Assembly: GCA_951406725.2 (NCBI GenBank) | Contig: OX597814.1 | Location: forward strand, 92,814,001 to 92,878,000 | Direction: 5' to 3' | DNA: 64,000 nt | Source: Octopus vulgaris | Lineage: Eukaryota | Part shown: positions 4,918 through 59,000 of the stretch, in pieces | How positions within the stretch are numbered: position 1 is the stretch's first letter | Layout of the letters: each line of letters starts with the position of its first letter | The notes under the pieces: generated by a model | Database searches by the model: none | What the model was told of the DNA's origin: nothing | The model's input: only the letters and a program-made list of their open reading frames with translations | Position numbers and translations under genes: made by a program

Positions 4918-5635
4918 TATTTCTTAATTTTTGTACTGAAAATATATCAAAATCTCCAATAGACTGCTATCCAAAGAGAGTGATAATCTTTTAAATACTG
5001 TTTTGTGTATAGAAAACTATCATGCAGTGATACCTCTAGGTAACACCAGGCATTATTTCAAATATAGAAAGATAGAGATCTTTATTATTAAAGGCAAAAT
5101 AGTAATAAGGTAAATAATCTTTTGAGAGCATTTAGTTAAAAATTTCATTGATATTATGTTTTATTTATACTTCATCATCATCAGCTTCAGCATCAGCAAC
5201 AACAAAAGAAGCATTGGATTAGCAAAGAAGTAGAAAAAATAGTTTTGTGGAATTTAGTTACATCCCTTTATTCAATTCCTGCCAAAGTTGATATTTAACT
5301 TTCTGTGTCAATACCCTACTGGTTAAGTATTGAAGATAATCTAATTATATCTTTCTGCCTTTGTTAGTTGAGAGAGAGGATGTGGGACTGGCAGAATTAT
5401 TAGAGCATTAGACAAAGTGTATTTGTTCTAGCTCTTTACATTGTGAGTTCAAATCCTGCCAAGATCAACTTTGCTTTTCATCCCTTCAGGGTCATTAAAT
5501 ATAAACTACCAGGTCAGTACTATGGTCCATTTAAATGACTAATCTCTCTTCCCATATTTCTAGCCTTGTATACCTATATTAGAAATGATAGTTGTTATTA
5601 ACACTTTATTCAAGCCAGCCATAGTGGACCCAAAT

Positions 5636-6056: not shown

Positions 6057-6696
6057 GCCGTTGATCTTCATCTCCGCCTGCGACGAGTGGTTGACTTCAC
6101 AGAAGGTAGTATATATGGCTGGATGTCAGACAAAATACATGACTCAACCCTTGCTCACTTAATCGGGCGGTGTACAGAACTGGAATACATTTATGGCTTC
6201 CACCCTCATTACATTGGCCAGCGGAGGCAGCGAGGAGTTAATATGTTAAGTATACCTGGTGTCGTTCATGCCATGTCATCAGCTCCAAAACTGAAAGGGA
6301 TCGAAATTTCAGATATTTTCTTGTTGGAAGCTATTTTGAAATATCTCCCCAAGCTTGAAATTTTGGGCACATTTAAGAACCGTGACTGTTTCTTCCCAAT
6401 TTTCTGCAACAACAAACTGTCCCTGCTTTCAAATCCTTTGATTACATCCTTGCACCTCACTGGAGTTGTCATACCTGAATTACCTCGTATGCAAACTTTG
6501 AAGCACTTGTATCTACGCTTTGTACGGCTCACTCAACACCAACCATTTCGTGACTTTGCTGCTCCTTCCCTGCGGACTTTTGTTATGGCCCATTGTGCCG
6601 GACCTATCAACCCTCTAAGGCATGTCCCGTTGATCACATCTTTGGCTATGGCAAAGTCACTTCAACGTTTGGAGCTACTCAGGGTGCCATTTCTAG
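6057..6696 (+). CDS. FBXO38: FBXO38 exon (AVDLHLRL...RVPFL)
   Basis: ttttag acceptor, gtgagt donor; LRR-like region matching the FBXO38 N-terminal half. Confidence 0.93.
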
Positions 6697-9600
6697 GTGA
6701 GTATTTTTATTTCATGTTTTTCAAAAATTTTTTCTCTGCGAATAATGGAAGTGTGTGTTGCTGGCAATCACTAGACAGATGTCTCTGCTCTTCTGATTTT
6801 GTCAGCTGGATTCTGTTTGTCACCCAAACATATTCGATATATCTATCTGTCTTTCTTTCATCACCTCCATATTTCACATACCAGAACTCAATTTTCCCAA
6901 TCCTTTCTATCAAAATTTGCATTTCTCTGAGGCTGTCTCCTATATATATGTGTACGTATGTATGTATATATGGGCATATATGCATATACATATGCATATT
7001 CAATTGATTCATTGAACTTTAAGGACCAGATCACAAAGTGGTGGTGTCATTATTTATTATATGTATATTTGTGTGGGTGTGTGTATACATGTATGTATGT
7101 ATATATTTATGTCTGTATGCATATAGCACAGGAATATCACTTGAAAAGATATGAATACCATTCAAGATGTTTTGTCTGCAACACCAATAACTGGTAATTA
7201 TTTAGTAAAGGACCAAAATTAAATTTGTTAGAGAATTTTGATATTCTACTCACCTGTACTTTTATAAATGTATCGTCTAATACATTTTTATGTAATTTTT
7301 ATCCTAGGTGGACTAATTCAGCATATTGTGGATGACAGTTGGCGTGTACAGGGCTTTCGAAACCTGCAGGCTATTACATTTGGTGCCTGTAAACATGCTT
7401 TGGAAGTGGATCTTGGTTTTCTAATTATTACCTGTGAAGCAAAGTATGAAACCTTTCTTTCTTTACTTTTTTTTTATTCACTTTTCTTAATTTTCTTATT
7501 GATTAAATGAATTGACTACTTTTTACCTCTTGAGATTATGTACAGGTTTACCTGATTTTGCATGCCATGAACTATAAATTTTTCTAGCTGTTGTGTTTAG
7601 CAGCCCCAGTTCTCTGAGTGACACTAGAGCAGCCCTAGAAACTTCCATCCACATTTGATCAACTTGTCGTAAGTTGAAAGTGGAACATCTACATAGGCAC
7701 TCTGACACTCAAAATATAACAGCTAAATTTTCCTCAAACTTATTATTTTCTTTAGTGTACATGGACCACATTATAGACAGAAATTCTTTAATGAATTATG
7801 TAATTCTAGTCTTAGGACAGTATCTTCAACAACAAAGATGAAATGGCCTCAGTAAGAATGCCAATCATATGGCTCATTGAATCCTTGCTACTTTAACCTC
7901 CATGCCATAGGTTTACTGTAATAGAACTAATTAATGTTGTTTTATGTGAATGTTTAATGGGATGGGTTATTTTTATATGTTGGAGAAATATGTTTTACAA
8001 CTTGGTGCTTTCTTTTTGTTAGCCAACAGTGAAGTAGAATTAAAATTTGTTTTTATCAGACATAACATTTTAAGTTATGTACCTTCCTCATTAGCTTAAT
8101 TTAATGATTCTTGATGGTATGGTTTGAACTCTTAACCATGTAGTCAGTAGTTTAGTATCTTAACCCCCTGTACACAAATGAAATTACTAGTGTTACATAA
8201 AGATATATAACATCTTGTAATTCATCACAGATACTCATTTGCAACAGCTATAGGATGGACTTTTGAAATGTTATATCTACTGATGATAGAAAGGACTGGC
8301 TGTGTGTTTCACTCAACCTGCTAAAAATAGTAGCTAAAGCTCTGCAAGTCATGTTCTACCATAAAGAACACACTGATGAATATGATCAAAAGTATTCTAG
8401 CCAAATAGGTTTGGCTGGAATACTTTTGATCATAGCTCTACTTGATCAAGGTTTACTTTCAGAAATTTGAAGGAAATGAAAGCTGTTGTTTACTTAGGCA
8501 CAGATGATCATTTGTTTCAGACCCCTAGGAAACCAGCCCTTGTGCTCAGTAGCCACATCTATGTCCTCTACCACTGAGACTGATGAGCCAATGAGGGGGA
8601 CATTGCATAATGACTTGACCTGCTAGAAGTAGCAGCCAAATCTTTAAATCACACCCTACAGCTTAAGAACAGGACACCTTCTATAATATAATCCTAGATA
8701 AAATTGGATAGTTGTTAAAGGATAGCTTTTTATCATAGGCCTGCTCAGCTAGGGCTGACATGGAGAGCTAAAAAGCAACAACTATTGGAATTGATTCATT
8801 GAACTTTAAGGACCAGATCACAAAGTGGTGGAACATTATTAATTATGTAATATACTGTTAAGATATTTTATTTCTTACATTTTTTTCCCTACATATTTTC
8901 TTCAATGTTTTAATAACTTTTTCTCCTTCTTTCTAGACTAACCGATCTATGTGTGCAGCCATCTCTAACAAAGGACAACCTCTTCTCTGCTCTCACTATG
9001 GCTGAAGTTACATTCCCAAATTTCAAGTCTTTAACTTTAGGTTTTGTAGACTCTTTCCCTGAACCAGGTAAGCTGACAATACTATTATTCAACCATTCTA
9101 TGAGGCTAGAAATAGAAATAACAGAAAAAATATGACATATGTATACTCTTTAGAATGCCTTCATTTCTATTTCTTTGTAATTTTAATTTTAGATGTAAAC
9201 TATATTTACTTTTTATTTTTTAGGTAAATGGACTGCTGAAGAACTTCTGACAGAAGGTCTGGTTGAAGTACAAGAGAATCCAGCTATGATCACAGATATT
9301 GGGATGAAGGCAGTGGGACGTTGTTTTCCATCTGTTAGCCATATGGAAATCTATAATTGTCCTCACCTTCATTACCCAACTTCTTGGTTTCATCCAGGTG
9401 ATAATATATTTTTTTAATTTAGTTAAGAGGTACAGTGGCTATAAGTTTAAAAGTGTTAGGTTATTAATTAGAATATATTTTGAATTTATTGAACCTTATT
9501 AAATCATCTTATCTATCTTCACAAAAATTGTAATTGTTTTGAAACCAACTAAAATTATCTTAGAATTTAATTTAGTGAATCATATTGTTTTTCAGTTCAA

Positions 9601-12600
9601 CAATAATGTAGAATTAAAACTGAATTTCTTTTTTTATTCAATGATTTTTATTTCTCATAATTTAGCAAAGAAGATTTTATATTATTGTAGTGTCACAATT
9701 TTTCACATTCAGTTTCAAAGATATTTTAAAGCACAGTGAATCTAACATTTGCATTCAGGTATAATGTGAGATAAGCATATTTGAAATCAGTGTACTGAGT
9801 TATCATAAAGCTCACCTTAACATGATACTGTACAAACTTGAGTCCATGTCAAACTCTTGTGTTCTAAAGTAGTTGGCTGCTTTTCAGATTTCCAGGTTCA
9901 TTTCATTTAAATGACCAATGTCCTTTAAAAGACTATGAACATCAACACAATTTCATTTTCACTTTATAACTATTTTCAATTTTTTTTATATGTAATCTAA
10001 GATCTTTAGTGAAATTTGGTTTTATTGTCATGTTATGCAAATATTATGAAAGGAAGTGGAAAAGATTCAAAGTTGTGTCATGTGGCGTAATAGATGGTTG
10101 CCACGATAGACAAATGATGTAAGATGTGAGATGATGTAGTTGTGTTGGATTCAGGCTATGTATAATGAATATACATCTGTGAATGATTAGCAGAACTTTA
10201 TTTCACTGCACAAATAATTTTCATGTTGATCATGAGTTAGAAATTGCAACAACAAAGTTTACACACTGGAAAGAATATTATTTAGCTCTTACAAATAGTT
10301 GATGAATAAGGCTCTGTAGTTAAGCTGCCAAGACAGGAGAAAATATACCATGCTGGATTCAGGTCATTGAACCATTGCAGCATGTCTAGGTTGAGTAAGA
10401 GCCATGATAAGGACTGTTAAAAGCAGCTAAAGCAGTGTGATTAGCTTAGCTGTGACTGACCACAAACTGAAGAGGTGAGATGTGTGAAAGTGAATTGGCA
10501 GGTCTCTGCGCGGATATACCTGATAAGAGTGGAGGTGCATTATCGCCCAGATGTGCTGTTTATAGGCCTTGTTAAGGAACATTTTATAGACCTCTAGAAA
10601 GATGCTTCACATGATGTCTGGGTGCTGGCTGGTTTATAACTCAGAGCTGATCACATGAAAGGCTGTTACTAAGCCGTGATTTTAACTTGGCAGTTTGTCG
10701 ACTCGGTTTCAAATCTTACTACAGTTGAATAACAAATATCAAAAACAACAATTGAAGCATATGAACTGAATTGTAATATTCATAGTTGCTCAACATATTC
10801 ATATGTATACTTATTAATAGTGCAAAGCAATGTTCAGCTGATTTTCTGTCATTGGTTACCTGTATTATACAAAGTCTGAATATTTATGCGTCTTAGTATA
10901 TATAAAACCCATCCTAACATGGTTGTGTAACCTGAATTATCAAACTAAGTACAAAAGCTCGTCAGTACTGCACAGATGTGTCTCTTAAGTAAAAACCTAA
11001 AAGTGTTCTATGCTAATGAGCAGAGACCAACTGAAAGCTTCATGACAACATAAAGAAACAACAAGCTCAGTTCACTGGACACCATATGAAAAGAAAGAAA
11101 AAACCTTGAGGACTTGGTGACAACCAAGAAACTCGAAGGAAGAAGAAATCAGAGAAGACAGAGAAAGAAATACTTTATGACTGATAATTAATGGTTTTAC
11201 CATCTGGTTTCAAAGAGGACCAACCCAATAATATACTAAATTGAGTGTGGGACAGGAGGGCGTGGAAGTCCATGATCATCCATGCCAGTTGGCATAACAT
11301 ATGAAGATGATTATTGATTATAAAAACTCAAGTGCTTCCCATAAACTTTGTTATAGATAGCTTTTAATTAGATGTACTTTTGCATATATTAGTTGATGTC
11401 TTTTGAATTTGTGTAAAAATGCAATTTTTTTTCCCTCCTTTTACTTTTATCAGATACCAATTGCTGGTCAAACTTGAAAAATTTACATCTCAGAAGATGC
11501 CATGCAATACGGCTTGAAGATTTAAATGCATTTATACCAATGCTTCCATCTTTGTTGTCCCTACATTTAGAATTTATGCTGAGAGAACCACCGAAAGGCT
11601 GTGCAAGGTGAGTGTGTTTTTTTTGTACTCATTTTTATCTCCCTGAAATTCCCTGAAATATGTTTCACTTTTTGCTCTTCCCTACAGCAGAATGGTTTAA
11701 AGGATTGTTATAAAATAAAACATAATTTAGTTGGCCAAAAAATGCTTCGTGTATAAATTTGAACAGGTCTAGAATTAATTTTTTTTTTAGTGTCAATGTA
11801 TAATTATAACATTGACAGGATCTCATTCAAATCTGAAGGAAGAGTGTCATCATATTAGCAATAAATGTGCATAAATTAAGTAACTACTAAAGTAACATTT
11901 AGTTATGTCACTTAACCCTTTAGTATTCAAATTACTCTGCCAAATGTAATACTTATTCATTCACTTCGTTTTGAACTAATCATGCATATTAACTTGTAGC
12001 TTTGAGATTTCTATGATGTGGTTGCTTATTTTTAGATGTGAGAGGTCAGATCTGGCTAGTCTGAACATAAAACAAGTAGGGTATTTCAGTCTGATGTAGG
12101 CAGTTTAAATACTAAAAGGTTAAGGTGTTTTTTTGTTTGTTTCTTTTAACAGAGTTGGCCTTAGTGCCGGGACTGGGCTTGGAGTTTCATCTGCTCTTGT
12201 ACAGAATAATGGAGCCGATGCCCATAACCAACCAAATGCTGCAGGTGCTGGGGCTGCAAATAATCAAGGGGACCAACCTCCAGCTCAAGCTGCTCCTGTG
12301 CCTCCAGCAGCAGCGGCCGCAGCAGCAGCAGCAGCAGCACCTGCAGAAGCAGAACCTCAACACAACAATGCAGAGGCTGATGCAGCAGTAGCAGCAGCAG
12401 CAGCATACCCTCCTCCTCCTCCTCCAATGTCACCGCCTCCATTGCCACCTTCACCCCCACCGTTGCCACCTTCACCGGAACAACCTCCACCACCCCTACC
12501 ACCACCTCCTGACCAACTTGCACCATTGGCAACATCAGCACAACCATTGTCACCACCGCTATTGCCTGAACACTCAACTTCACAGTCACCACTCCCGCTC

Positions 12601-15600
12601 TCTCGAGATTCTTCCCCCCATCAATCACCTGTACATTGTTCGTCACATCCCATCTCCACTTCTCAGTGTTGTACACCTTCAACCAGTCACAACTGTGTAG
12701 CCCCATCTCAGCAGGATTGCGCCTCCAATGTTGCCGGTAGCAGTTCTGGTTCAGTTCCAAGACAGAGTGGGAAGAAAAATAGTCTTCTACGTAGTAAAGA
12801 AAATTCTAGCAGCAGTCAGAAATCATGTGAAATCAATGATAAGAAAAGTCAAGACGGTGAGTCATCTTCTGAAGATGGGCAGAGAATTGAACCTGGGGAC
12901 AGCAGTTCAAACAGACATGTGCCTAACCAACTGGCTATAGGTAATAATCACAGTTATCTGACAGAGCAGAACAACTTGTACTCAGCTGTTAAGGCTGGTC
13001 CCTCAGGACTTAATCATACTTGTTGTTGTACTTCTGTCATTGCAAACAAACGGGTCAACCATCATTTTGGTAAGCATTTCATTTTTGTTATTTTGTTGTT
13101 TTTTTTTGTTTTTTGTTTTTTTCTTCTTTTTGTTTAAGAAAGCCCTTTCTGAAACCATATTTCTTACTTGAATATCTCCTGCTTTTGCATTTCTAGAATT
13201 CTTTTAATTCAAGAATTTAAAACATTACTAACTTTATTTATTTATTGAGTCTCACAGAGACGATAGGTGGTGACTAAGACTTTTGGTGGTTTGCTATGCT
13301 TGAGAAGACATTTTGAGCTAAGTGAAATCGTATTCATGGCTAGTGGCATGTAAATGGCACTTATGACATGTAAACAGTACCTGTACTGGTGACACATAAA
13401 AGGCATCCAGTACACTCTGTGGAGAGGTTGGCTTTATGAAGGGCACCCAACCATAGAAACCAAACCATGGTTTGACTATAACTGGTAAGCTGGAGAGCTC
13501 TCTGGCTACCAGTTCTAGTCAAACCATCTAACCTATGCCACCATAGGAAACGGATACTAAATGATGATGATATTAGATGCAGGCATGGTTGTGCCATTAA
13601 GAAGTTTGATTCAAAACCATGTGCTTTTAGATTCCATTCATTGCTTGGCACCTTGAGCAAGTAACTTCCATTATAGCTTTGGGCTATTTGCTGCTGAGTG
13701 TGCTGTGAATGATAAAATTCACCATAAGCAACAACAACTCTAAGACAGATCAGCCTCGTATCTGGAGAAAAAAAATCTTTCATTTGTTTAATGTTATAGA
13801 TACTAGAGCTGAGCACTAACATAATGGATCATTATGATTTTAGATTACCTGTTCTTTTCCCTTATTCTTTAACATTTCTCATCACACAATTGTTTTAGTG
13901 TAGCTTAATTGTGGTAAATATGCATTCAATCTTTACTAAAGTCATTTCATTGTATTAATGAACAGAATACTTACATTATCCTGCTTATCTCAAATCATCT
14001 CATATACAGTTTATTTGATGGTTGAGTGGTTAGCAGTAGGAAGACATAGTAGTGTGTAAATTTATACTAAAGAAAAACCGAATCCTCTTAAAACTTTTTA
14101 TGAAAGCATTAGAGCAAAAACAGGTTAAAGCTTTTATTGAATTCATGATCTCTACCCATACAAAACTGTTTTTTTTTCTATGTTGTCTGAATAGTGGTTT
14201 TCAACAACAGTTCAAGACCACAAAGTGTGAAGAGAATTTTATTTATTTCTTGCACTTGTGTGTATTTTATCAATTTGTTTGGGTGAAAGGCGGTGAGATA
14301 TGAACTCAGACTAAACAGACAGAGCTCTAAATACAACAAAACTTCTAATTTGGTACTTCACTGCCTCTTGCATTTTGGTATTTGTAATGTTGTCTAAATA
14401 CTAAATTTTATTAACTGCTTTAAAATATGTTTTGTATGTATTTTATTATGCAATATAAATTTTATCTGAGAATATTTTGTATATTGACATATTTAAAATG
14501 AAAAAAAAAATGATTATTTAAAAAACAGGTACTCCTAAAAGAATAGAGGCTAGCTAAATACTGTTGCCTCTTTCTCTGGTGTAATTCATCCTCATTCTCT
14601 AGCGTAACACTACCGATGTCTCTCACATAAGATACTTTTGTCTCTACCATAAAACTTTTTCTCTCTCTCTCTCTTGCATAACACTGCCTCTTTCTCTAGT
14701 ATAATACTGCCTCTCTTTCTCACAAACTGTTGCCTCTATCTCTGATATGACACTACTTTCTCTCTTGCAAAGCCCTGCCCCTGTCTCTGACATCACATTT
14801 CTCTGTATATATAACACTGATGTATTTATTTTCTTCATAAAAAAAAAGGATATTATTGAAACAGTTTTGTTGGTAAATTCCACTAGTCAAACGATTATTT
14901 AATTAGAATTTTTGAACCTCATTTCAGGTCATAAAAACACCAAAGTGACAAAGTGTTCTGCAGAGAAGACTAGTAAGCATACCACGAAATCTGACCTGCA
15001 CTCCAAAGGAGCATACACCTGCTACAATCCTTCAGTTCGTGTTATCTCCACAGATACATCATCTGCTCAGCCCTCAACAAGTGGCTTGAATATTTGCAAG
15101 TCTGATTTTGTAAACAACGCTAGCATTCCATCTGTTGCAAATGGATCCTCAGCCTCAAAACAATGCACCCACAGTGGTGGCAGCAGCAGCAGCAGTAGTA
15201 ATAGTAGTAGTAGTAGCAAGGGGAAAGATGGAATAGGTGGTCATTGTAGTAGTAGTAGTAGTAGTAGTAGTAATGAAAACAATAGCATTGGTGATGATTG
15301 TTGTAGTACTAGTCGTAGTAATGTTCGAAATTGTTGTAATAATGTAAGTGATGTTAGGAGTCACAACAGTGCCAATCAGTGGTTACAAGAGAAACACAAG
15401 AAAAACTTAATGAATATGGCTCAGAGGAAAAGGATGAGGGAGCTGGACGATTGCTGTCCTTCATCAGCAGGAGGAGAAACGGAAGGAGAATGTGCCAAGT
15501 CGCGTTCATCTAACAAAGCCTTTTCAGAAAAATTGTCAGCCTCCTCTGCAATTTCTGGAGGAGAGTGCAGCTCAAGCACTACCACCAGCCACATGCACAG

Positions 15601-18600
15601 GTGTAACGAATCCTCATCCGGTAAGAAATATCTTCACAAGTTCCTTTACAAAAAGGACAAACATTCGGCAAATGCAAAATCCTCTGAAAGTTGTTCTCCT
15701 GTCTCTGAACCTCAGCCTTCTACATCATCATCGACATCTTCAGACACGGTGTTCGATGTGGCGCCACCAACCTGTGATAAATCAGCTGATGTCCCGCCAG
15801 CAATAGGGGATAATATGCAATCTTCTGCTGATACCGATGCCTTAGTCAGCGGAAACCATAGCGACAGTAGTAAGTGCTGTACATTCAATGAAAACAACCT
15901 GCCTTCAAGTTCTTGCATCTCTCACTCTGCTGAAGCACACTTGGAAGTAAAATGTGAGGGAAATAGAATTCCGACCGTGTCAACAATGTCACCGAAAGGG
16001 AAGTGCCTTCGGAGTGGTTTCAGAACAGTCCTGAAGAGCAGTGCCAAGATAACAACTAAGTCCAAAAAAGGCTGTGATAGTTCACCCTTACCATTGCTTT
16101 CATCTTCATTACCTTCCTCTTCCTCCTCTACTTCTTCCTCATCATCATCACCATCATCGTCATCATCATCGTCGTCATCATTTTCTGGCAGTGGTCCTGT
16201 CAAAATGAACCAGTCTTGCCAAGCTGTCAGTGAAGAAATTCGAGAGACTACAAAGAAAGCAAAAGAAAATGAGGATGCCACTAAGTCAGCCTCACATTCA
16301 GCTGAGAATGCCAGTGGAAGTGAGAGATCATCATCATCAGCAGCAGCAGCAACTAATAGCAACAATTCTCAAAATACCGGTAGTAGCAGCAGAAGCAGTA
16401 GTTCTGTTCGTGCTGCATCATCATCGTCGTCGTCGTCATCCACTTCAAATTCAGTGCAGTCGGGATGGACTGCTAGATCAGGTCCGAAGTACAGCTATAC
16501 GCGTAAGTCAGTCAAACGTAAAATGAACACCTGTGACCAAGCTACCAGCACCAGTGATCCTGTACAGGAAGAAGATCATATTCAGGTGAGCCATCACTAA
16601 ATACAAATGGTTGTTGTTTAGCTCCGTGTGTTTCCTGGTTGAGCAGGTATATGACTAGATATTCTACTCATGACCCTTCCATCTTTTATTCTGACATAGT
16701 ACATCCCAGCCCACTTCATTTGATGTCTCCATCACCATTTGAAATGTGATTTGGTTGCTAGTTCTGGTTGGAGGAATGACCACCTCGCATTGACATGATC
16801 ATTAGATATGACCCATTTGTGCCTAGTAACATGGTAGAGAAGAAAACATGGGGAATTTCATAAGCCATTTGATCTGTCGAAGGATGCATTACTTAAGTCT
16901 AGGTCTTTATATAATACTAGCACTATGACCCTGCAACGCCGGGTCATAGTGCTAGTGCATGCATATACAGCTGCGTGCGTGCACACATACACGCGAGTAC
17001 TGTCCAAATCTCCGACCAATCACATACAGCTAGCTGGTATTCAATTGGCGTAATTTTGATTGGGTTTTGGATAGAAAATTCACAAAAAAGTCTCTTCTAT
17101 TGATTTTTTTAATGGCTTTGTGGGGGTGACTGGGGAAATGTAAAGATGTGCACGACTTTGAATGACCAAAGAAAGTGCGAGCTCTCTAACTGAAAAATTG
17201 TGGATTTGTATAAAGGACACACATGCAGACATTTTGCCATTTATATATAGAGAGATATTTAAAACAAGACAACATGGTGTGGCCCTGCTTTTTCTAAGGT
17301 TACACTGAATTCAGTGTTATTAGTTAACGAAGCACTTGTCAGTTTTGTTGTATTGATACAACTGATAGCTACAAGATATTCTTATTGTGTAGTACCTATT
17401 TAAAGTTGGAAAGACTGGAATTTTAAACTTCAACAGTGTTGGATACAAACCAGTGCTAAAAACAGGATATGATTTACCAACTTCTCAGTAGAAAATTCAG
17501 TTTTTTTGGACCTAGTTATTTACTTAGCATAAGGAAACATTAGTCTACTGCTCAACTTTAACCTTAAGTAAATGTGAAAGAAATCTCTTCCTAAGATAAT
17601 TCAGTACCCTGTCAGAGACAGACTTTCATCCAGAAGTTGTAATCACTAAAACCAAACAAGTTGTTATCAGTAAAACAATATTGATACATTTGATAAGAAC
17701 TTACCACTTACAAATTGAGAGTCTACCACTATATTAGTGTTTTACCTTTACCTTCGATAGTACCAATCATTCTAACCATTTCAACAAAGCATTTTCTATA
17801 TTGTTGATACATACCCTGCAAGGTGAAAACTGGGAGAGTTCTAATTTCAGTTCTCACTGGCAGAGTTTGCAGTTTGTTTGTGAAAGGGTAGTAATAGGTT
17901 ATTGATAAAATATGGTAAATGACTGAAACAAGTAAAATAAAAGAAAAAGAATAAAAACAATTTATTGGGGAAAGAGTTTATTAACCATATCCTTCACATT
18001 TCACACAAAAAAGGACTTGTGTCTGAGAAAGAAAATCATATAATATATCTTTGCCATTATATTAGTCTCTTTTTCATAGCTTGTAAAATATAAAATGGTG
18101 CTCTCAAAATGTGATATGATTGCTTTTATTTTCTGATATTTTTCCATAGGTACTTGGAGTTCAGTCCAAGACTCTGACAACCCTGACATTGCATATGGTT
18201 GGAATAACAAATCTCTGCCTTCTTGACTGTCCAAATCTGGCTACCGTCTCATGTAAGTTTAGAGCTAAATTACACTTATCTTGTATACATTAATACTGGT
18301 GTATATAAAAGAATGGTGTTTGAATGGTGTTCTCACCTTGTTATTGTCTTAACTCTGTAGCATTTAAACTGGCCAGATTCAGCATCTCACACCTACCCTA
18401 CAATGTCAATTTTAAAATATACAATTACATCATTGAAATCTCAAAGCTATGAGATAATACATGATCAATTATATGAAATGTGAATATATAGGCATTACAT
18501 GTGACAGTAATCTGAACACTAAAGAGTTAATGTTTTAAAATTGTGTCCTCTGCATATTGGTGTTTCAAATTTTGGCACAAGGCCAGCAATTAAGTCAATT

Positions 18601-45198: not shown

Positions 45199-48003
45199 GG
45201 TGGTTATGGTGGTGGTGGTGGTGGTGGTAATGATGGTGGTAGTGGTGGTGGCATGACAACGATAATAACAGCAACAATAACAACAACAACAATAATAGTC
45301 TTTCTAATTTTCAGTACAGGTCTTTGATCCAATAATAACTTTCTCGTTTCCTGCCAATGAGAGGGGCCTTGGAAAGTGGTTTGGACACTGCATTTCTACC
45401 ACTGATTAAGGCATCATCCCAAGAACCAATGGGTGGCTTCAGATGAAGCTTTCAGGGATGTTTGGCCTTATGCCTAGCATAAACTGATTAGATTTTGGGA
45501 TTGATCCAGTACTGGGCAAGGATTCTGGATTATTTTTCCATTTTTTTACTTAATTTTTGTGAGTAGCCAGGTTCATTTTTAGCATTTTCATTTGTGAGAG
45601 CAGTCGAGTTTATTTCAGATTTTCTCATTTTAAAAATCATCTCCGGCTACTCGTTGGTGTTGCCTAGGCAGAGGCTTGTGCTCTCTGAGTGCTCTTGTTA
45701 CTTCTAATTTTAGTTTATTTGTCTAAGTTCTTTTGTGGCACATTCTGTGACCTCTTCAAAAACTTTCTGTCCCATATGCCTTATTTTGTCCTGTATATCC
45801 ATTTTGTCTTTCTGACAGATAGACAAAATGGAAATTGGCAAATGATGACCATCCCCATCATCATCCTCATCATCATCGTTTAAAGTCCGCTTTCCATGCT
45901 AGCATGAGTTGGACGGTTTGACTGAGGCTGGCAAACCAGATGGCTGCACCAGGCTTCAGTCTTGATCTGGCAGAGTTTCTGCAGCTGGATGCCCTTCCTA
46001 ATGCCAACCACTCCAAGAGTGTATTGGGTGCTTTTATGTGCCACTGGCATGGGCGCCAGTCAGGCGGTACTGGCAATGACCTCACTCGAATCTTTTTACA
46101 CATGCCAATGGCACAGGTGCCATGTGTAAAAAGATTTGAGCGAGGTTGTTGCCAGTACTGCCTGTTTCAACACACCATTTCATTTCAAGAAACTTGCAAA
46201 ACAAATATGTAAACATAGGAAGAGAGAATGATATGATATAATTTCTTGAGTTTCCAAATGAACAGGTTTTAATAACTTTCAGCAGTAAAGAAATAAAGGT
46301 GATGAGGTCAAGGCCTGATAATTCTACCATTCAATGACTTAATTCATAGAAAGAAAATGTAGCTTATCTTACAAATAAGCTGCATCAGAACCAGTGAGTA
46401 GAATAAACAATGCTGTCCCTTTTTCTGCTTTGGCAACTTTGTAGAATTTCTTGATTTCTGTCAATAAAATATAAATATGAGAAATGGAAATATATGGAAA
46501 TATCACTTAAATATTGATATATTTTGGGATGGTCGTTTTTTTTTTTTTGCCAAATAAACACATGCACTAACTATTCAGTCTTCACTCATTTATTAAAAGA
46601 AAAAAATGAATGTCCTGAAATATAACAATATCTCTTTGAATACACAGATTCATCATCACCATCATCATCATCACCATCGTCATTTAACGTCTGTTTTTCA
46701 TGCTGGCATGGGTTGGACGGTTTGAATGAAAACTGGCAAGTTGGGGAGCTGTACCAGGTTCCAGTCTGATTTGGCATGGTTTCTACAGCTAGATACTCTT
46801 CCAAATGCCAACCACTCCAAGAGTTTAGTGGGTGCATTTTATGTGCTACAGGCACAGGTGCCAGTTACATAACACTGGCACCGGCCATGATTACGGTCTC
46901 ACTTGGCTTGACAGGTCTTCTCAAGCACAGCATATCTCCCAATATGTAAAAAGGGTGCTTTTTACATACCAGTTACTAGACACTGGCACTGGCCATGACT
47001 ATGAACACACTCGGCTTGATGGGTCTTCTCAAGCATGGCATATTGCCAAAGGTCTCAGTCACTTGTCATTACGTACATGAGGCCCAACATTGAAAGATCA
47101 TGCTTCACCACCTTGTCCCATATCTTTCTGAGTCTACCGCTTTCACAGGTTCTGTCCATTGTTCAGCACTTCTTCACACAGCTGTCCTTGTCTATACGCA
47201 TCATACGACCATATCAATGCAGTCATCTCTCTTGTGCACCACATCTGATGCCTCTTATACGATGGGTTTCTTTCAGTTTCCATCTACCAAATCTACTCTC
47301 AAGGCTTTGGTCGGCCTGAGGCTATAGTAGAAGACATTTGCCCAAGGTGCCAAGCAACCAAGCAGTGGGACTGAATCTGAAACTATGTAGTTGGGAAGCA
47401 AGCTGCTTACCACACAGCCATGCCTGCGCCTATATATATATATATATATATATATATACTACAAAATTAGAGAATGGAGAAACATACTTAAATCAGTAAA
47501 ACATCAACTATCCGATGATATTCAATCCATACTTTAATACACCATTACATATGAGTAAAGGCAATATATAAAATGAAATGAGATACACAGTAATAGTAAA
47601 AGTAAAAAGATAAAGAGATATAAGTAAAAAATTTCAAATATAATATGCAAATAAATCAAAACTGACAGCTGTTTCGGCAGTGAGGACAGTCATACCTCAT
47701 TTAACCTATAAGCCATAAAGGCAGGTATAAATGAGGCATTAACAAGGATGCCCCACGGCCTCTTCAGAGAATTAAATTAAATTTGTTATAATAGTGAAAA
47801 ATATTATATAATCATATACATATAAATATAAAAATATAAAAATGTAAAATATAAAAACTTATACATCATAATGCTACACTTATATAATATAATACACATT
47901 TGTACAAAAAGGAAGGTAAACAGAACAAAATAAAACAAAATATATAACAGTGTATATATTAATATTAATAAGTACCGATATTATACATATTTGGCTAATA
48001 GTT

Positions 48004-48038
<35 letters not shown>

Positions 48039-48125
48039 CTAACACATATGGAGATGAAAAATAATAATTAAATCCGTGGTACAGTTCATAAAATTCTAAA
48101 GCTATAAAAGTTAATAAAAATTACT

Positions 48126-48179
<54 letters not shown>

Positions 48180-51100
48180 TAATAATAATAAAAAATACTA
48201 AAAATAGATACAGTTAAGTTAGCACCAAGTCCATCCTTTCAAGATCGAAATAACTATGAGTTAAGAAATGCTGACCACTAGGTAAAGAAAATTTAGATTA
48301 ATTCGATTGGCTATTGGTTTGAAATTTAAATCACAAAAGAAAATTATACGGTTGGTTAGTCAAGGAACGCCAATATTCACACACGCATCTACAGATCAAA
48401 CGCACATACACACATAGTTATATGTATATACATACACTTATACACATACACAATCACAAGCAACAACTAGCACTTAGATAAACAAAAAAGGGAAGCAACT
48501 ATGCTAACATTTAGTCCTTCAAAATTACAACTGAGCCTCAATAACAAAAAAAGAACCATCCATGCATTCTATAAAATATTTAATTTAGATATAAATATAT
48601 TTTTAAATATCAGTATGTTACTAATTCAGATAATTATTTCATGGGTAACTTAAAATTTATAACACCGGTTTGTTACAGAGTAAACATACGGTTGTTAGGT
48701 TTATCGTAAGTTTGTTATGATTTTAAGTACGCTAAATTATAAAATATAAAAAAATATATATTAATTTAAATATTATAAATAAGTCACTTATTAACTTAAT
48801 AAATATAGTGCCATAATATACCAGTTTAGGCATTAAAGAATAGAAGAGGAAGTATTAATGTAAACGCTTATGAGAACATCACAGAAATTTTAAATAAATT
48901 TTATATTATAAAGACTTAAGATGAAAAGAGATGAAATAAATAAAAAGGAATAAATACGAAGGAATAAATACGGTTATATACATAATTATAAGTACAAACT
49001 AGTATATATGTATTCATATATTATTAAAATTAAATAAAAATAAATGATAGATATGTATGTATAAAACTACACCAGTATAAGTAAATAAGTAAAAAATAAA
49101 TAGGTAACAAATTAGATGACTTGATATGTATGTAAACATCTACACTTAAATAGGCAAATAAATAAATGAATAGAAGACTAGATGCAAAGATTGATAATAT
49201 TACAATAAAATGGGAAATAAATAAAAATAAATAAAGTGAATATATATATTTTATATTGTTGAAAGTAAATATGTATGGAAGGATAGTTTAAAGTACAGAT
49301 CCAGAGGACTATAGATATAAACTAAATATATGAGGCTGGTAATAATTATAAAGCAAAATGCATGTAAATGAGAAAATGAAAAAAAATGAAAAAGGTTTAT
49401 CAGTGAATAGCATAAGATACAAATTAAGGTGAGTACAAAAAGACCAAATATATAATAAAAACCTTCCAAATAAACACATACAAGAAACCTATAATCTCAA
49501 CCTAAACCCACCAAACTCACAAAAGGCTCTCATATATTACATATTATACAATATCATTACATTATCTAGAGCTAGGTATCTAACCAAGATATACATATAT
49601 ACTATGCAATATACTATGCAATATTGGAAAACTTCAAAAATCACACATTACAAGGCAAATACCAAAATGAATATGTTATTTTATGTCATATTGCATTTCT
49701 CTTAAAAAAACAAACAAAAACCCACATACAAAAACCAAGAAACCAATAATACTAGACACATCCATTAATTATTATACAAATGTAGCTATAAAAATTATAA
49801 AATTATGAAATTTATAAATTGTATACTTTAGAATTATAGAAGACCACAGGTATATTTAGTTAAAGAAGGGAATTAAAAAAATTAATAATAGTGGAAGTGC
49901 TAAGTTCTATTTGAATCTAGAAAAGGTGAACGGTAGCCTATGAATACAAAAGAAGTTTTTCTCATTAATGTTGTTAATAATTTGCCGACCCGCTTTAATA
50001 ATGAAGAAAATTTCATTAATACATAGAGAGCATTTTTTATTTTTTCCATTATACACAGGTGCTGAAGTTAGTATTTTCCAGTTTAATCTAAAATCTAAGT
50101 TCTTACTTTTAAGTTCCCAAATGTATGCACTTAGCCCTGTAGAGTACATTCTATTTTTATTCCTAAAAGTATATCTGTGATAATTCCATCTTTGTTTTAT
50201 GCTATTCATAGTTGCCCCGATATACACCCTACTACTCAATTGTGTATCTACAGTGCATTGGTAAACTACCTCCTTCCTGAGGCATTGATTACCAAATACA
50301 CATTTATTTTTATTTCTGAAATTACAAAGATTAACAGAATGAGGAAATCTAAGATTGGACACCACCCCTATACTACTATTCACATTATAAGTGTTACAAT
50401 TGTTATCATCATCCAAACCCAAAATCAACGAATGAGTTAATTTCACATTATCGGCTATATTCCTATCACTAGTACTAGTATTGGTAGTAGTAGTATGATC
50501 TATTACATTTATATTATCTCTGACAGGTATGGTGCACTCATTATTAGTAAGGAGGTTGTTCCCATTTGTTCCAAGAAAATTTCTATTCCTATTATTAATG
50601 AAGAGGGGCAAGTTTTCCTGGTCTAAATTCAATTTTCTATCCTTATAGAAGTGATCCAGTTTCTTGTTATTAAAAGAGGAGATAATGGTGGCTAGATTAT
50701 GAGTAATGCTATATCCCACTCTAACAGTACCGTTGTTAATTAAAGGACTAAATTTATTCCTATCCTTACCGAAATGCCTAAAAATAATATTATGCAAAGC
50801 TCTCACTATGTTTGTTTTAATCTGCATTGCATACGGGATAATCAACCAAAGAGTATCCTTATCAGAATTAGGATTGCCTATAGAATTAATGTTATTTGTA
50901 AAAATCCTATTCGTAGACCAACTCATAGGATTACTATTCTTACCACTGTTATTATTATATCTATCTATATCAATATTACCATGGTTATTGCGCAAGTAAA
51001 CTTTACCAATATCATGTCTACCATAAGTTTTAATTCGTATATTATTATTAATATTACTACTATTACCCGTATGCTTAGATCTATTTGAGCTACCGTTCAC

Positions 51101-53605
51101 CTTTCCAAGGTTAACGTCACTTCTACATTTATTATAGGTGTTATCATATATTCTATTTTTACTATTCTTATGTATATTGTTGATTATCCTAAATCTATTT
51201 GTGTTGTTCCTGATAGTTCTACCTCCATTAGGGGGTTCCCCTTAGGTATAAACCAAATCTTACTTTTATATCCTGCCTTAAGTAATGCTGCATTGTATCT
51301 ATCACAGTGTTTGTTAAAAATTTCCTCGTTTGAGGATAAACTAGAAATTCTCTGACTAATGCTACGCACTAGTGCATTTTTAATTTGAGGGGGTGATTAC
51401 TAGAACGGTTAATGTATATTAGGTTAGAATTAGGTTTAATATAGGGTTCATGTAAACCATTAGTAATGTTACAATTAACATCTAAATAATTAGCAGAATA
51501 ATTTTCACTTTCAATGATAATGGATAGGCCGAAGCTTTTAAAAAATTTATTTATTCTTTTTTTCAGAAGATCTAATCTCCTATTTGATGTATTCCTAACA
51601 CAAAATAAGGCGTCATCCCTGTATAATCCACCTTTTAATTCAGGGAATTCCCTACTAAAGTTATCTAATAGATACATCCCAACTAGATCAGTCACCTCCG
51701 CTGAGTCCGGCGATCCCATTGTGATATCGAACAAGTTGGGTGTGTCCTTTCTAGCCCAAAGTTTATTATCAAACTCTATTAAAGTTTTCCTGGCTGTTAG
51801 TATAACCTTAATCTCCCCCATACTTAATTTAGTGTGTTTTCTAGCAAAAATTAAGGACTTATTTAATATAATAGGGTTAATTGAAGTGTAATAATTCTGT
51901 ATATCGAATTGTATAAATTTATTTCTATTATAGCTAAAGTTGTTACTGTCACAGACCTTAATGGCAGAAAACCAATCCAAAGCACCCTGAGTATTCTTCC
52001 AAAGGTTTAGTTTGATTTTATTGCGGATGGTGGGTAGATATTTATCTAGAATGAGTTTACTTAGTCTGCCTAAGTCAGATTTAGTGGGGCAAATTAATCT
52101 GACCTGTGTGTTTCCAAGAAAATTCTCTTTATGATCCTTTAGTGTAATTCTCGGTCTGGATGGGGTGTAGGGTTCCGTTTTTTCTTCTAGGTAGTAGTCA
52201 AATATGATTTCTCTGATCTCCAGGTTCAGTTTTCTAAGTGTACTAGAAGGTACTACTTTGTATTTCTTGGTTATTTCCTTGTGTAGAAGATCATGATATG
52301 CAGTAATGTCAATGTTGTAGATGTTGTTGGTTTTGTCAGAATGTGTTAGAATGCCGCTCTTACCTTTGAGAGTTCTAATTAAGTCTTTCAATTCTCTTTG
52401 GTGCGGGTTATATCTTAAAGGATGATTTCTAAATTTTATGTTTTTTACAGTCTCCCATAATTCTTGTTCAAAATTGTCTAGATGTATATTTGGTGGAGGA
52501 GACTTTCTAGATTTAAATGTAGTGCCTGTTAGTTTTAATATTTCTTCATAGGTGCTTCCAATTCCATTACGGATCGTTTCCCCAGTGTGTTGTTGGTTTA
52601 TTTTATTATTAAAGTTCTCATGGTGGAAAATCCTCCATCTGATCCTATGGATGAATTCATTCATTCTATAAATTAGTTCTTTAGTGTAATGGTCTTTGGT
52701 AGGGATAGGTACATCCTTCATTGATGAATTGATCAGTATTTTCTCCATTCTTCTAGCAGTAATGATCAAAGGAACAAATATACTACACTAGGGTGTATTC
52801 ACATGCACTATTAATATTTAAATCAATAAATGGATGCTTATATTACACCAGTATGAGCAATTCAGGTTCCTCAAAAGATAAATTTAGGTTATAAAATGAG
52901 ATAGGGGTTGAAAATTCAACCCACCATGGGATAATATATATCCAATATACTGCTAGATAGGTACCCAACAAAATTAATACATAGATGTTAAAAATTGTCA
53001 AGCAATCAGTTCATCTATTGTATTAAATGGGTAAAGGTAATAATATTACCGTAAATTAATACTACAAAATTAGAGAATGGAGAAACATACTTAAATCAGT
53101 AAAACATCAACTATCCGATGATATTCAATCCATACTTTAATACACCATTACATATGAGTAAAGGCAATATATAAAATGAAATGAGATACACAGTAATAGT
53201 AAAAGTAAAAAGATAAAGAGATATAAGTAAAAAATTTCAAATATAATATGCAAATAAATCAAAACTGACAGCTGTTTCGGCAGTGAGGACAGTCATACCT
53301 CATTTAACCTATAAGCCATAAAGGCAGGTATAAATGAGGCATTAACAAGGATGCCCCACGGCCTCTTCAGAGAATTAAATTAAATTTGTTATAATAGTGA
53401 AAAATATTATATAATCATATACATATAAATATAAAAATATAAAAATGTAAAATATAAAAACTTATACATCATAATGCTACACTTATATAATATAATACAC
53501 ATTTGTACAAAAAGGAAGGTAAACAGAACAAAATAAAACAAAATATATAACAGTGTATATATTAATATTAATAAGTACCGATATTATACATATTTGGCTA
53601 ATAGT

Positions 53606-53637
<32 letters not shown>

Positions 53638-53728
53638 GGGGCTAACACATATGGAGATGAAAAATAATAATTAAATCCGTGGTACAGTTCATAAAATTCT
53701 AAAGCTATAAAAGTTAATAAAAATTACT

Positions 53729-53775
<47 letters not shown>

Positions 53776-56029
53776 TAATAATAATAAAAAATACTAAAAA
53801 TAGATACAGTTAAGTTAGCACCAAGTCCATCCTTTCAAGATCGAAATAACTATGAGTTAAGAAATGCTGACCACTAGGTAAAGAAAATTTAGATTAATTC
53901 GATTGGCTATTGGTTTGAAATTTAAATCACAAAAGAAAATTATACGGTTGGTTAGTCAAGGAACGCCAATATTCACACACGCATCTACAGATCAAACGCA
54001 CATACACACATAGTTATATGTATATACATACACTTATACACATACACAATCACAAGCAACAACTAGCACTTAGATAAACAAAAAAGGGAAGCAACTATGC
54101 TAACATTTAGTCCTTCAAAATTACAACTGAGCCTCAATAACAAAAAAAGAACCATCCATGCATTCTATAAAATATTTAATTTAGATATAAATATATTTTT
54201 AAATATCAGTATGTTACTAATTCAGATAATTATTTCATGGGTAACTTAAAATTTATAACACCGGTTTGTTACAGAGTAAACATACGGTTGTTAGGTTTAT
54301 CGTAAGTTTGTTATGATTTTAAGTACGCTAAATTATAAAATATAAAAAAATATATATTAATTTAAATATTATAAATAAGTCACTTATTAACTTAATAAAT
54401 ATAGTGCCATAATATACCAGTTTAGGCATTAAAGAATAGAAGAGGAAGTATTAATGTAAACGCTTATGAGAACATCACAGAAATTTTAAATAAATTTTAT
54501 ATTATAAAGACTTAAGATGAAAAGAGATGAAATAAATAAAAAGGAATAAATACGAAGGAATAAATACGGTTATATACATAATTATAAGTACAAACTAGTA
54601 TATATGTATTCATATATTATTAAAATTAAATAAAAATAAATGATAGATATGTATGTATAAAACTACACCAGTATAAGTAAATAAGTAAAAAATAAATAGG
54701 TAACAAATTAGATGACTTGATATGTATGTAAACATCTACACTTAAATAGGCAAATAAATAAATGAATAGAAGACTAGATGCAAAGATTGATAATATTACA
54801 ATAAAATGGGAAATAAATAAAAATAAATAAAGTGAATATATATATTTTATATTGTTGAAAGTAAATATGTATGGAAGGATAGTTTAAAGTACAGATCCAG
54901 AGGACTATAGATATAAACTAAATATATGAGGCTGGTAATAATTATAAAGCAAAATGCATGTAAATGAGAAAATGAAAAAAAATGAAAAAGGTTTATCAGT
55001 GAATATATATATATAAAATGAGATAGGGGTTGAAAATTCAACCCACCATGGGATAACATATATCCAATATACTGCTAGAGAGGTACCCAACAAGACTAAT
55101 ACATAAATGTTCAAAATTGCCATGCAATTAGTTCATTTACTGTATTATGTGGGAAAAGGTAAAAATATTACCGTAAATTAATACTACAAAATTAGAAAAT
55201 GGAGAAACATACTTAAATCAATCAAACATCAACCAACAGATGATACCCAATCAATACTTTATTACACCATTACATAACAGTAAAGGCATTATACAAAATA
55301 TATTGTAAATATAATTAGACAAGGAAATAGAAATATAAAATATAAAATATAATATGTAATTATATCATATCTGACAGCTGTTTCAGCAGTAAGGGCAAGC
55401 ATGCGTCATTTAACCTATAAGCCATATAAGGCAGGTATAAATGAGACATTAACAAGGATGCCCCACGGCCTCTTCAGAGAATTTAATTTATTATAAGTGT
55501 GAAAAAAATTTTTTTTATATACATATAAATATAAAAATATAAAATATAAAAACGTGTGCATAGACACCCATAATACTACACATATATATATATACTCATT
55601 AATACAATAATACAAAATAAACAAAAACAAAATAAAACAAAATATATATTAATAAACACAGTTATTCTACATATTGGGCTAATATATTTATATGTATATA
55701 AAAAAATTTTTTTTCACACTTATAATAAATTAAATTCTCTGAAGAGGCCATGGGGCATCCTTGTTAATGTCTCATTTATACCTGCCTTATATGGCTTATA
55801 GGTTAAATGACGCATGCTTGCCCTTACTGCCGAAACAGCTGTCAGATATGATATAATTACATATTATATTTTATATTTTATATTTCTATTTCCTTGTCTA
55901 ATTATATTTACAATATATTTTGTATAATGCCTTTACTGTTATGTAATGGTGTAATAAAGTATTGATTGGGTATCATCTGTTGGTTGATGTTTGATTGATT
56001 TAAGTATGTTTCTCCATTTTCTAATTTTG

Positions 56030-56074
<45 letters not shown>

Positions 56075-59000
56075 AAAACACATGCATGCATGCATGCAAA
56101 CACACACACGCAATACACACATTCATATGCATCCAGCCATAGAAAAACTGCCTAAATAAATTCTGTCTGACCCATGCAATCATGGAATATTAGACATTAA
56201 AACAGTATTGATAATGATGATTTAAAAGAAGTTTATAACATGTAAGTTTATTGATTCCAGGAATAAATGACTTTGTATGCTGTAAACTTGGCTCTATTTG
56301 CAGAACCTGGCAAAGATGTGAAGAACATCCACATGTTAAGAAATGGTCAAAACTCAAATACCTAATGGTTAATAAAGAAAATGTGAAAGTACTAACAGAG
56401 ATCACAAAATCTGTTTGCCATAAAGTAACAAGTCAATACAGGACTTATATTCAGCCCTAAGCAATAGAAGACTGAGAACAAGAACTTCAAAATTTGCTAA
56501 CTGTACCAAAGTAATTAGCATCAAGGATATTCATATAGTGAATCTATTGTTCAGGTGGCTTGTTAGATAAAGATTATGTTATCAAAGTGACCTAAGTAGT
56601 GATGGGGTTGGCTGCAATAACTGTTTAGAAGATAGAATAAGGAAACCATATAAGATGTCTAGTGAGTTGCTATCTTTATTTGTAATAAATTGTAGACTGT
56701 GTGGTTATTTCTTCTTCTTCCTCAAGTGATTACAACCAAGATGCATTTTATAATACTGCATCAGGAATCCCTGTCTCCCATTGGCTTTAGTAGGTTCTCA
56801 ATTTCAAGTTGTATGTTTCTACTAAAACATTTTAAGCCAAATGAAACCCAATTAAGTTGGACGGAAAATTTTTGGTTATCAAGAGTTATAACTTCAAAAT
56901 TATTTTGGGACTATGATAAATTTATATTGTATTTTCTGGTATACAAGTCAGTGTAGTATATAGTGTAAACATGTAGTGTAAACATTCAAACATTGTCATT
57001 ATCTTTCCAATTTCTGCTGTATTTCATATAGAATTTGATGTGTATGACTACCTTACTTTTTTAGTTGTAAATTCTAGTCTGATGAATTCAACTTGTATGT
57101 TAGAAAATATGGTATCCATTCATAGAATTCATGTTGTTTTATAAAATTCATATTCTCTTTTGTATAATACGTAATTATGAAAAAGAAATATTTTATAACA
57201 TCTTACCAGTGCTTTGTTCAGGAAACAATCCAAGGATACAGATGGATGTTAGGTTGATTGCACTTTGAAATGATCCATCTAAAATATTATTGATGTCTTC
57301 TTTAGTTGCTTGGATTACATCTTCCAGAGAATGACTGAAATTTAAATAAGTGGATATATATATATTTTAAAAATTGAATTTCAGCAGTGTGTGTATATGT
57401 GTGCATATTTATATGTATATGTGTACAAGACTTTTTTTGACTTCTCAGCTTCAGTTATCTTCCCAAAGCTTTTTTAGAAGTAGCAAGTTTCATGAATAGT
57501 TGAAAACATGTGAAATTTCTATACACAAAAGAAGGCAAATATGTCCATGCTCATATATATATCATCATCATCAATCATCATCATCATCAACATTTAATGT
57601 CTGTTTTCCATGCTGGCATGGGTTGGATGGCTTGACAGAAACTACCAGTTCATCCATTATATTCTCTTTTCTTTTCCTCTATCACTATAAATGGAGTGCT
57701 ATTGCCTTTATTGTTAATATCTTCTAACCATGATTTATGACCCCCGCCAAAAAAAATTTTAAACAAAAGAAACAATTTCACTGCATTAAAAAATAGGGCA
57801 ATTTGTTTAAAGGAAATGGCTTGCTTGTTGCCGATCCTGGCAAAGTAAGTGAATCCTACAACAAACTATTGGTTAATTATATGATATTTGTCTTTCACTG
57901 GAAGCTGAAGTGATGTGATTAGAAGTTTGAGTAAGTCTAAAAAGAAAGAAATAGATGGTGCAGACAGTAATTTGCAATTGTGAAGAGAAAAAATTTTTGT
58001 TGGGAAGAGGAAATAAATAGTATAAATAAGGTACTACACTCTCGGAGTGGTTGGCGTTAGGAAGGGCATCCAGCTGTAGAAACACTGCCAGATCAGACTG
58101 GGCCTGGCGCAGCCTTCTGGCTTCCCAGACCCCAGTTGAACCGTCCAATCCATGCTAGCATGGAAAACGGACGTTAAATGATGATGATGATGATGATGAA
58201 GGTCTCCTGTCCTGGAGGCAAACAAATGTAGTTTGCGGAGGGATATCATATTTATTAAAACAAAGTACAATGATTATAAACTTAAATACATGACACTAAA
58301 ATACTAAAGCTTATTAATCACAAAGACAATATTTTGATAAAGTTAGATTCAGCCGTTGGCTGTATCAAGGTACATAACTCTTCTTGGGCAAGGTACACAA
58401 CTCTTCTTATCTAGCTGTCTGATGTGTTTCATCCCTACTGCACAACCGAGTGCATGGGATTAGAAATTGCATCCATTTATACAATCATTTGATCTAGCGC
58501 CATGAAAAATGTTTACATTTTGAGAAATATAAATACATTGTTTAACATGGAAAAAAAATAGATATAAAACAACAAAATTACAGGTATAAAAATTTCATGG
58601 CACTTTTGGCATTTAGAACTCCAGTATAATTAATTATCAAGTCTTGACCATCTTTGCCAGGTGGTTTTCCAAGCAGTTTGATTGTTGGACTGTGCGTAAA
58701 GTTGTATCGATTGCACTCCTCATCCAGGTGTAAGCAGTCGACCATGGCACTAGAAAGATTGGGGTAGTTTTCACCAAACTGAGACTGCCATTGTTCCAGA
58801 AGACGTACAAATGCTATACCAACCGGGTCATCTGTCAAAATATACATAAGATTTATATGAGATTGATGAGTTCCATATATCATATTGAATTACAGTATGC
58901 ATACACAGAAGATGAAATATATCTTGAGCAAACCTGTACATCCATTTTTCAGTTATGTGTTACATGTGCGTTTGACTCCTTTCTTAATTTATCTATTATA

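Follow-up and report, generated by a model that had tools for sequence, protein, structure and literature searches.

A 64,000-nt window of the Octopus vulgaris genome (GCA_951406725.2, contig OX597814.1, forward-strand positions 92,814,001 to 92,878,000; window positions are used below) contains a retroelement in an intron of TXNDC16. By its motifs the element is a Penelope-like element (PLE) of the Hydra clade, and it is very young. With about as much confidence as doubt, we favor a reading in which this element, seated in a (TA)n tract of the intron, carries its own promoter and was copied by more than one pass along a unit-length template; this template would be a circle, cut by hammerhead ribozymes and re-ligated.

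The element unit, measured from cut to cut, covers 5603 nt of the minus strand (47664–53266; the features below lie on this strand unless stated) and comprises a 518-nt leader, an open reading frame (ORF) and a 2.2-kb 3′ untranslated region (UTR) that ends in a hammerhead. As the original prediction held, two identical hammerheads bracket the ORF. Their 104-nt cores (53370–53267 and 47767–47664) are spaced 5603 nt apart, with predicted cuts at 53267/53266 and 47664/47663; unit positions begin with the base that follows the upstream cut, 53266 being +1. The ORF of ~950 codons (49907–52748) encodes a reverse transcriptase (RT) resembling that of telomerase, an Asn-rich insert, a linker and a GIY-YIG endonuclease (EN). 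Upstream, a 5′ pseudo-long terminal repeat (pseudo-LTR; 53059–55005) duplicates 47456–49409 at 99.6%, with no substitutions over 1704 scored sites. The insertion extends 208 nt beyond the downstream cut as a short tail (+1 to +208; 47456–47663), where the 3′ end of the element joins the (TA)n target (47431–47457). Further (TA)n tracts lie at the junction of the A and B insertions near 55006 and past 56042. The placement on the TXNDC16 strand, between exons 57207–57334 upstream and 46373–46457 downstream, was likewise borne out: both exons have AG/GT borders and matching phase, and the host exons match TXNDC16 protein of Octopus vulgaris at 100% and of O. bimaculoides at 88%. The intron is 10749 nt long, ~8.6 kb of it made up of two insertions, and such an intronic location is ordinary for a PLE.

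Each hammerhead has the core CUGAAGA...GAAA, an 85-nt stem II hairpin, the palindrome ACAGCUGU in stem III and a 2-bp proximal stem I. All features of a type I hammerhead are present (CUGANGA, GAAA, NUH, G10.1-C11.1 and three stems), with a weak stem I; Rfam at its gathering thresholds returned no hammerhead match. The fold has a z of -4.4, stem II shows two-sided changes at 5 of 30 consensus pairs among 16 variants (related sequences, counted with no tree correction), and the core is nearly invariant across the family. The predicted dimer lies at -95.3 kcal/mol, ~7 kcal/mol below two monomers (-88.2 kcal/mol). Strand types of stem I showed no mismatch between subfamilies in the 135 typed of 140, and a strand-swap energy test of stem I gave no discrimination. 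The ribozyme resembles the weak dimer-type PLE ribozymes of PMC4209133. An older subfamily (L095, L106, L107) has the core CCGAAGA (U4C) and a longer predicted stem I.

Dimerization through the palindromic stem III, proposed originally to occur in cis and with the help of a third sense hammerhead upstream, is energetically favored in prediction, and the third core is indeed present (55477–55373, 2106 nt upstream, with G10.1-U11.1 in place of G-C). It belongs to a separate head-to-head insertion of subfamily B (55012–56042), which has no ORF, is ~80% identical to the main element and has its own two ends on (TA)n. Within it, a 360-bp inverted repeat (55174–55533 and 55683–56042, 98%) holds both this core and a fourth hammerhead, overlooked before, on the plus strand and so antisense to TXNDC16 (55739–55843). 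The antisense arm comes first in the host pre-mRNA and is predicted to pair with 105 of 105 nt of the third core, which would sequester it in a hairpin and leave that part of the proposal unsupported.

In the assembly, two frame breaks at homopolymer runs, near 51388 and 51230, split the ORF into two long pieces, and full-length homologs of 700–800 aa align over both in three frames. The run lengths vary among assembled copies (4/5/6 in 5/23/5 of 33; 5/6 in 18/18 of 36), and both breaks are absent from long ORF contigs of three runs that we guess to be RNA (X1, X5 and X9, from three studies; assembled contigs, from which RNA ends, strand and level cannot be read). Because the run length varies among copies and the breaks are missing from these contigs, we judge them likely assembly errors, on the testimony of other copies and contigs rather than of this copy itself. 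The predicted model of the RT half (pLDDT 89.7) has telomerase RT (TERT) as all of its top nine PDB fold matches. The endonuclease in the same ORF shows a VVY...YIG motif, and homologs align across both pieces. A Pfam search with the two pieces found no match, the GIY-YIG profile included; RVT_1 was weakly matched by 2 of 56 aligned family members, and a PDB sequence search with the ORF found no match.

The clade assignment follows the motifs defined in section 11 of PMC8557442, with reference proteins compared by eye. As in the Hydra clade, a single ORF places RT before GIY-YIG. RWR (RW[KR]) and SDKT (DKT) are present, DKG occurs in 0 of 42 homologs, CSLC (CxxC) and CIH (CxH) are found, the EN showed no additional C/H set (no CCHH), and insertion is into (TA)n. 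Of 50 family arms, 45 have the second C of the linker CxCX5C; at 50319 this copy reads CxF, not CxC, as do 5 others of the 50 aligned arms. The hammerhead ~60-170 nt before the consensus 3′ end is a further likeness (PMC8557442). More broadly, the telomerase-related RT, the C-terminal GIY-YIG and the partial tandem or inverted pseudo-LTRs with tail and hammerhead are those of endonuclease-bearing (EN+) PLEs. In contrast to the Hydra clade as described there, the octopus unit measures 5.6 kb (theirs < ~3 kb), the 3′ UTR 2.2 kb and stem II ~85 nt, and its two tails end ~180 nt apart (theirs 30-40). The supplement of the same paper lists another octopus family, Hydra-1_Obim of Octopus bimaculoides, with a different ribozyme, and ours is a different family (proteins compared by eye). 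Three relatives of the ORF (P0005, P0006, P0028), labeled 'GATA zinc finger protein 14-like' in cephalopods or placed in a bacterial metagenome-assembled genome, are likely mis-annotated PLE proteins.

A 17-nt pattern of the hammerhead core has 1790 matches in the genome (reversed control, 0), spread genome-wide on both strands; all 40 scored matches of the ribozyme region are 100% identical, and the ORF start has 108 candidates. Among the first 100 core matches there were 4 same-strand pairs 5.4-5.9 kb apart, and a head-to-head pair occurred in 18 of 75 clusters. The layout ribozyme-unit-ribozyme-tail recurs in 24 of 50 loci examined, which were selected by similarity and not at random. The ribozyme bracket, or partial tandem, is the normal form of the family. 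Two inverted insertions (L074+L073 and L082+L081) have two near-full-length arms, with 7 differences in 5238 sites and 1 in 5060. Near L027-L028, L031, L033, L035 and L040 lie long ORFs that belong to other mobile elements, and L028 has a diverged relative (74%) of the family endonuclease.

The 5′ ends of the copies point to an internal start site. Exact counts along the unit fall from 608 (unit 5021-40) to 420 (4980-99) and 421 (4940-59). Of the first 100 arms listed, 34 lacked both upstream probes: 28 ended at 5005-5020, 1 at 4986, and 5 were continuing variants. Thus one site, 587 nt upstream of the first cut and directly behind a double CCAAT, has 28 of 100 arms ending within 16 nt of it. 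Of 27 mapped truncations, 14 end at unit 5010, and three short copies with the haplotype of this locus end at 5009-5014. Position 5010 (53853) is likely the element's own start site, with CCAAT boxes at -60 and -53 (53913–53909 and 53906–53902), which would make 53853–53913 an internal promoter. A second copy of this putative promoter lies in the 3′ repeat (48257–48317). The promoter reading of the boxes draws on the usual spacing of such boxes and on PMC2377424, where a pseudo-LTR promoter was shown for Drosophila Penelope. The simplest reading of the pile-up is RT run-off on a transcript starting at 53853 and copied through an uncut ribozyme, as many templates were; an RT stall site at 5010 in place of a transcript start is the alternative. 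The original proposal of an excised monomer that needs no promoter of its own finds no support in this copy, whose 5′ repeat carries the putative promoter. In 8 of 28 tandem arms the 5′ repeat is too short to include it, and these would need read-through.

Relations among duplicates carry the argument for repeated reading of one template. Duplicates differ by 0.21% when direct (53 pairs) and 0.23% when inverted (59 pairs), against 1.87% between loci. In 24 tandem loci, 11 locus-private alleles (+11 to +371) occur in both leader and tail and 3 in only one of the two, over 5959 sites; for the UTR repeats, shared alleles number 32 and unshared ones 46 (21 of these in two loci), over 28930 sites. 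The repeats of this copy share all 8 alleles that are absent from the other 49 loci, and at the six positions checked related short copies keep the older allele. Genome-wide probes placed its alleles in 10 short copies, five of the older haplotype and five of its own, with four further matches in an older subfamily; no ORF-bearing carrier of its haplotype other than this copy turned up. Since both repeats have the newer alleles, the copy was likely born from a donor outside the assembly, with a single template position as the source of each of its own. The five own-haplotype short copies may be its sisters or daughters. No donor was found, and a 5′-to-3′ crossover could not be placed from donor-daughter pairs. 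Second passes stopped at the start site in 0 of 20 cases, compared with 28 of 100 arms (Fisher p = 0.004); subject to the caveats below, this points to a circle rather than to a jump at the start site. At L063 and L072 the 5′ repeat and body have different alleles, which points to template switching between RNAs or to separate insertions.

Tails fall into two classes. Among 123 tails from 90 loci, 67 end near +208, 53 near +389, 3 elsewhere and 0 at the cut; in 30 unselected loci the numbers were 21, 8 and 1 elsewhere. Head-to-head insertions (loci within L021-L173) pair one +208 with one +389 tail in 34 of 35 cases and in no case have two tails of the same class, and the subfamily-B insertion at 55012–56042 likewise has one short and one long tail. 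The leader between the two family-wide RT start points (52860–53110; +208 near 53059, +389 near 52878) is structured, with z = -3.6. These tails fit two internal RT start sites plus double-strand priming; an internal RT start was shown in vitro in PMC11167929, and a one-ended tail in PLEs is described in PMC8557442 and PMC3846280.

The likely-RNA contigs bear on editing and on the source of the RNA. Four A-to-G changes of the element sense strand, all in hammerhead stem II (53296, 53304, 53305 and 53319), occur in these contigs and are absent from a DNA-like run; in ~159 genomic alignments they occur 0, 0, 0 and 1 times. Some of the sites were seen in one low-depth contig, and the genomic comparison was with DNA of other animals. 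Of 15 differences checked, one other (51543) was absent from genomic copies. All four sites are preceded by a 5′ U or A, which is the preference of ADAR, and stem II looks adenosine-to-inosine edited at these candidate sites (53296–53319). Locus-private genomic alleles showed no A-to-G excess (53 A>G at 1818 A sites, 74 T>C at 1957 T sites). At 52460 and 52612 this copy differs from 39 of 39 others, and the ORF contigs of all three runs have the family allele; this copy was thus no main source there, and the animals may not carry it. Together with 53124 and 53189, these two positions can serve as markers of the locus. Contig depth falls upstream of the cut in 2 of 3 runs, but depth in contigs is an unreliable measure, and an edited stem would lower it in the same way. 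An AG lies 4 nt before the ATG and raised the possibility of a leader intron; the contigs showed no joint and run unspliced into the leader.

We propose that RNA polymerase II would start at 53853, and that the RT-endonuclease would nick (TA)n and begin a pair of cDNAs within the leader of a single RNA molecule. If that RNA is linear and uncut, the RT would run off at the start site and yield copies of 0.8-1.0 kb; on an RNA cut at both ribozymes and closed, it would circle more than once and produce partial tandems like this copy. Host read-through may supply RNA at this locus and would not be required. The earlier idea of a unit-length, possibly circular RNA stands in part: the family-level allele patterns fit it. 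No copy has its 3′ end at the cut, and 5′ ends there are no more frequent than at control positions.

Several observations weigh against the favored reading. The lowest-energy fold of the monomer is inactive, the active fold being 5.2 kcal/mol higher in prediction, and the PLE ribozymes of PMC4209133 are weak, dimer-type and cut poorly. Ends exactly at the cut (+1) were found in 6 of 8 probe hits; matched control probes gave ~4-5 of 6 true ends at +8 and 4 of 6 at +112, so there is no excess, and the six arms at +1 were rejected as a run-off footprint of cleavage. Four apparent +1 ends resolved into two that continue upstream, one that joins 8-9 nt upstream and one that is real (L056). At the start site, of the 14 ends at 5010, 8 fall in palindromic junctions and are ambiguous by 2 nt. 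The 28% stops may reflect short donors that offered no target for a jump, and the 0 of 20 test is the weaker for it. Duplicates differ at L072 (29), L067 (16), L059 (7) and L063 (5), so switching between molecules occurs. A circle junction is identical in sequence to a genomic tandem junction, and in the contigs, which alone were examined, no RNA end, circle or cleavage was seen. A lizard PLE inserts without cleavage, and RNA-seq gave no ends at its cut (PMC11167929).

Many of these points suit a linear, terminally redundant RNA made from the element's own promoter, on which the RT, once at the capped 5′ end, moves across to the homologous 3′ copy in the style of LTR strand transfer and the ribozymes at most trim the 3′ end. 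Such a jump accounts for allele sharing equally well, and it agrees with templates clearly read through the uncut upstream ribozyme, with the missing excess at the cut, with mixed-template loci and with cleavage being dispensable in vitro (PMC11167929). It expects some second-pass stops at the start site, however, where 0 of 20 were found, and three own-haplotype short copies stop at 5009-5014, yet the sole promoter-bearing carrier found has an ORF (small numbers). We regard it as possible and, on balance, doubtful. Homogenization of the duplicates in DNA by gene conversion or in assembly, with the ribozyme a passenger of little activity, seems improbable to us. Craig et al. do raise parasitic ribozymes (PMC8557442), and Naiads thrive without ribozymes. 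Against this, direct and inverted arms are equally alike, shared private alleles are as dense as private alleles in the single-copy ORF (0.12%), and stem II covaries around a nearly invariant core; homopolymer differences persist between copies, so polishing did not merge them.

The original prediction made TXNDC16 pre-mRNA the main source, with ribozymes that dimerize in cis, release a monomer, cleave the host intron and so affect splicing. The sense orientation and the bracket are real, the palindrome is predicted to favor a dimer, this copy is the sole ORF-bearing carrier found of a haplotype common to five short copies, and the 8 of 28 tandem arms with promoter-less 5′ repeats would need read-through. 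On the other side, this copy holds a putative promoter, its short relatives end at the internal start site rather than in sequence of the host, sequestration is predicted for the third ribozyme, and contigs of three studies have the other allele at both private sites, from animals that may lack the insertion. Its identical repeats mark it as a fresh daughter, whose relatives may be sisters. We therefore think this origin very unlikely; for this copy the host-promoter idea is unnecessary and not supported. Cut introns can still splice, through exon tethering. Retrozymes are under-represented in Xenopus introns (bioRxiv 10.64898/2026.07.22.740005).

Extending the favored circle, one could read the copies as a record of the whole Penelope cycle. 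One RT-EN dimer would prime two cDNAs at two set points on the same RNA, uncut transcripts from the promoter would give the short copies, and a ribozyme-closed 5.6-kb coding circle would give every long copy with its identical pseudo-LTRs; ADAR editing of stem II would act as a host switch on the closing step, and promoter-less tandems lying in sense within introns could supply the cycle through host transcription. Taken as a whole, this scheme strikes us as unlikely.

Around the element, the 3′ copy of the putative promoter (48257–48317) faces the rest of the host intron and exon 46457–46373, and a truncated TXNDC16 transcript could begin there. The element unit has 11 sense AATAAA, where host transcripts could end early. 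A 90-codon TXNDC16 exon (58581–58850, minus strand) matches O. bimaculoides and is absent from the annotated O. vulgaris protein P0001, likely an annotation gap. At 6057–16600 on the plus strand lie exons of another gene, presumably FBXO38-like, with long Ser-, Pro- and Ala-rich ORFs.

R2 has a hepatitis delta virus-like ribozyme, a fixed ribosomal DNA site and no promoter. The octopus element shares with it a ribozyme at the 5′ element border; unlike R2, it inserts genome-wide, with matches on both strands, and likely has its own promoter, as the start-site pile-up in the repeat suggests. With non-LTR retrozymes (Cervera 2020, PMC7229834; Li 2026, bioRxiv 10.64898/2026.07.22.740005) it shares type I hammerheads one unit apart and a proposed circular intermediate. 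Retrozymes, in contrast, are short non-coding tandem units, a few hundred nt long, whose circles have been demonstrated, whereas the octopus element is autonomous, encodes RT-EN in 5.6 kb, and its circle is predicted. Like Penelope of Drosophila virilis (Schostak 2008, PMC2377424; Cervera 2014, PMC4209133), it is a partial tandem with a promoter inside the pseudo-LTR and a ribozyme with a 2-bp helix I and palindromic helix III; it differs in clade, in having no leader intron in the likely-RNA contigs and in that its promoter is putative. Poseidon PAc of Anolis (Frangieh 2024, PMC11167929) also has two internal RT start sites that give the tail, extension of both strands and AT-rich targets; its sites are adjacent and inside the ORF, whereas in octopus they lie in the leader, separated by ~180 nt, and inverted copies strictly carry one of each.

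Cervera and de la Pena (2014, PMC4209133) have published a PLE model in which hammerheads release a unit-length, possibly circular RNA. Excision and circularization had thus already been proposed in print, and the octopus family lends them what appears to be indirect support. A literature search, outside subscription papers, found no work on this octopus family, none that uses alleles to test how pseudo-LTRs are regenerated and none on PLE ribozyme editing. How PLEs rebuild identical end repeats, and what the hammerhead does, are given as open in PMC2377424, PMC8557442 and PMC11167929. The features described here are real, and the octopus element adds to a known PLE type. As a young, high-copy family it offers nucleotide-precise marks for these questions: a start site, a pair of RT start points, the rule that joins one short tail to one long, locus allele markers and candidate editing sites in the ribozyme.

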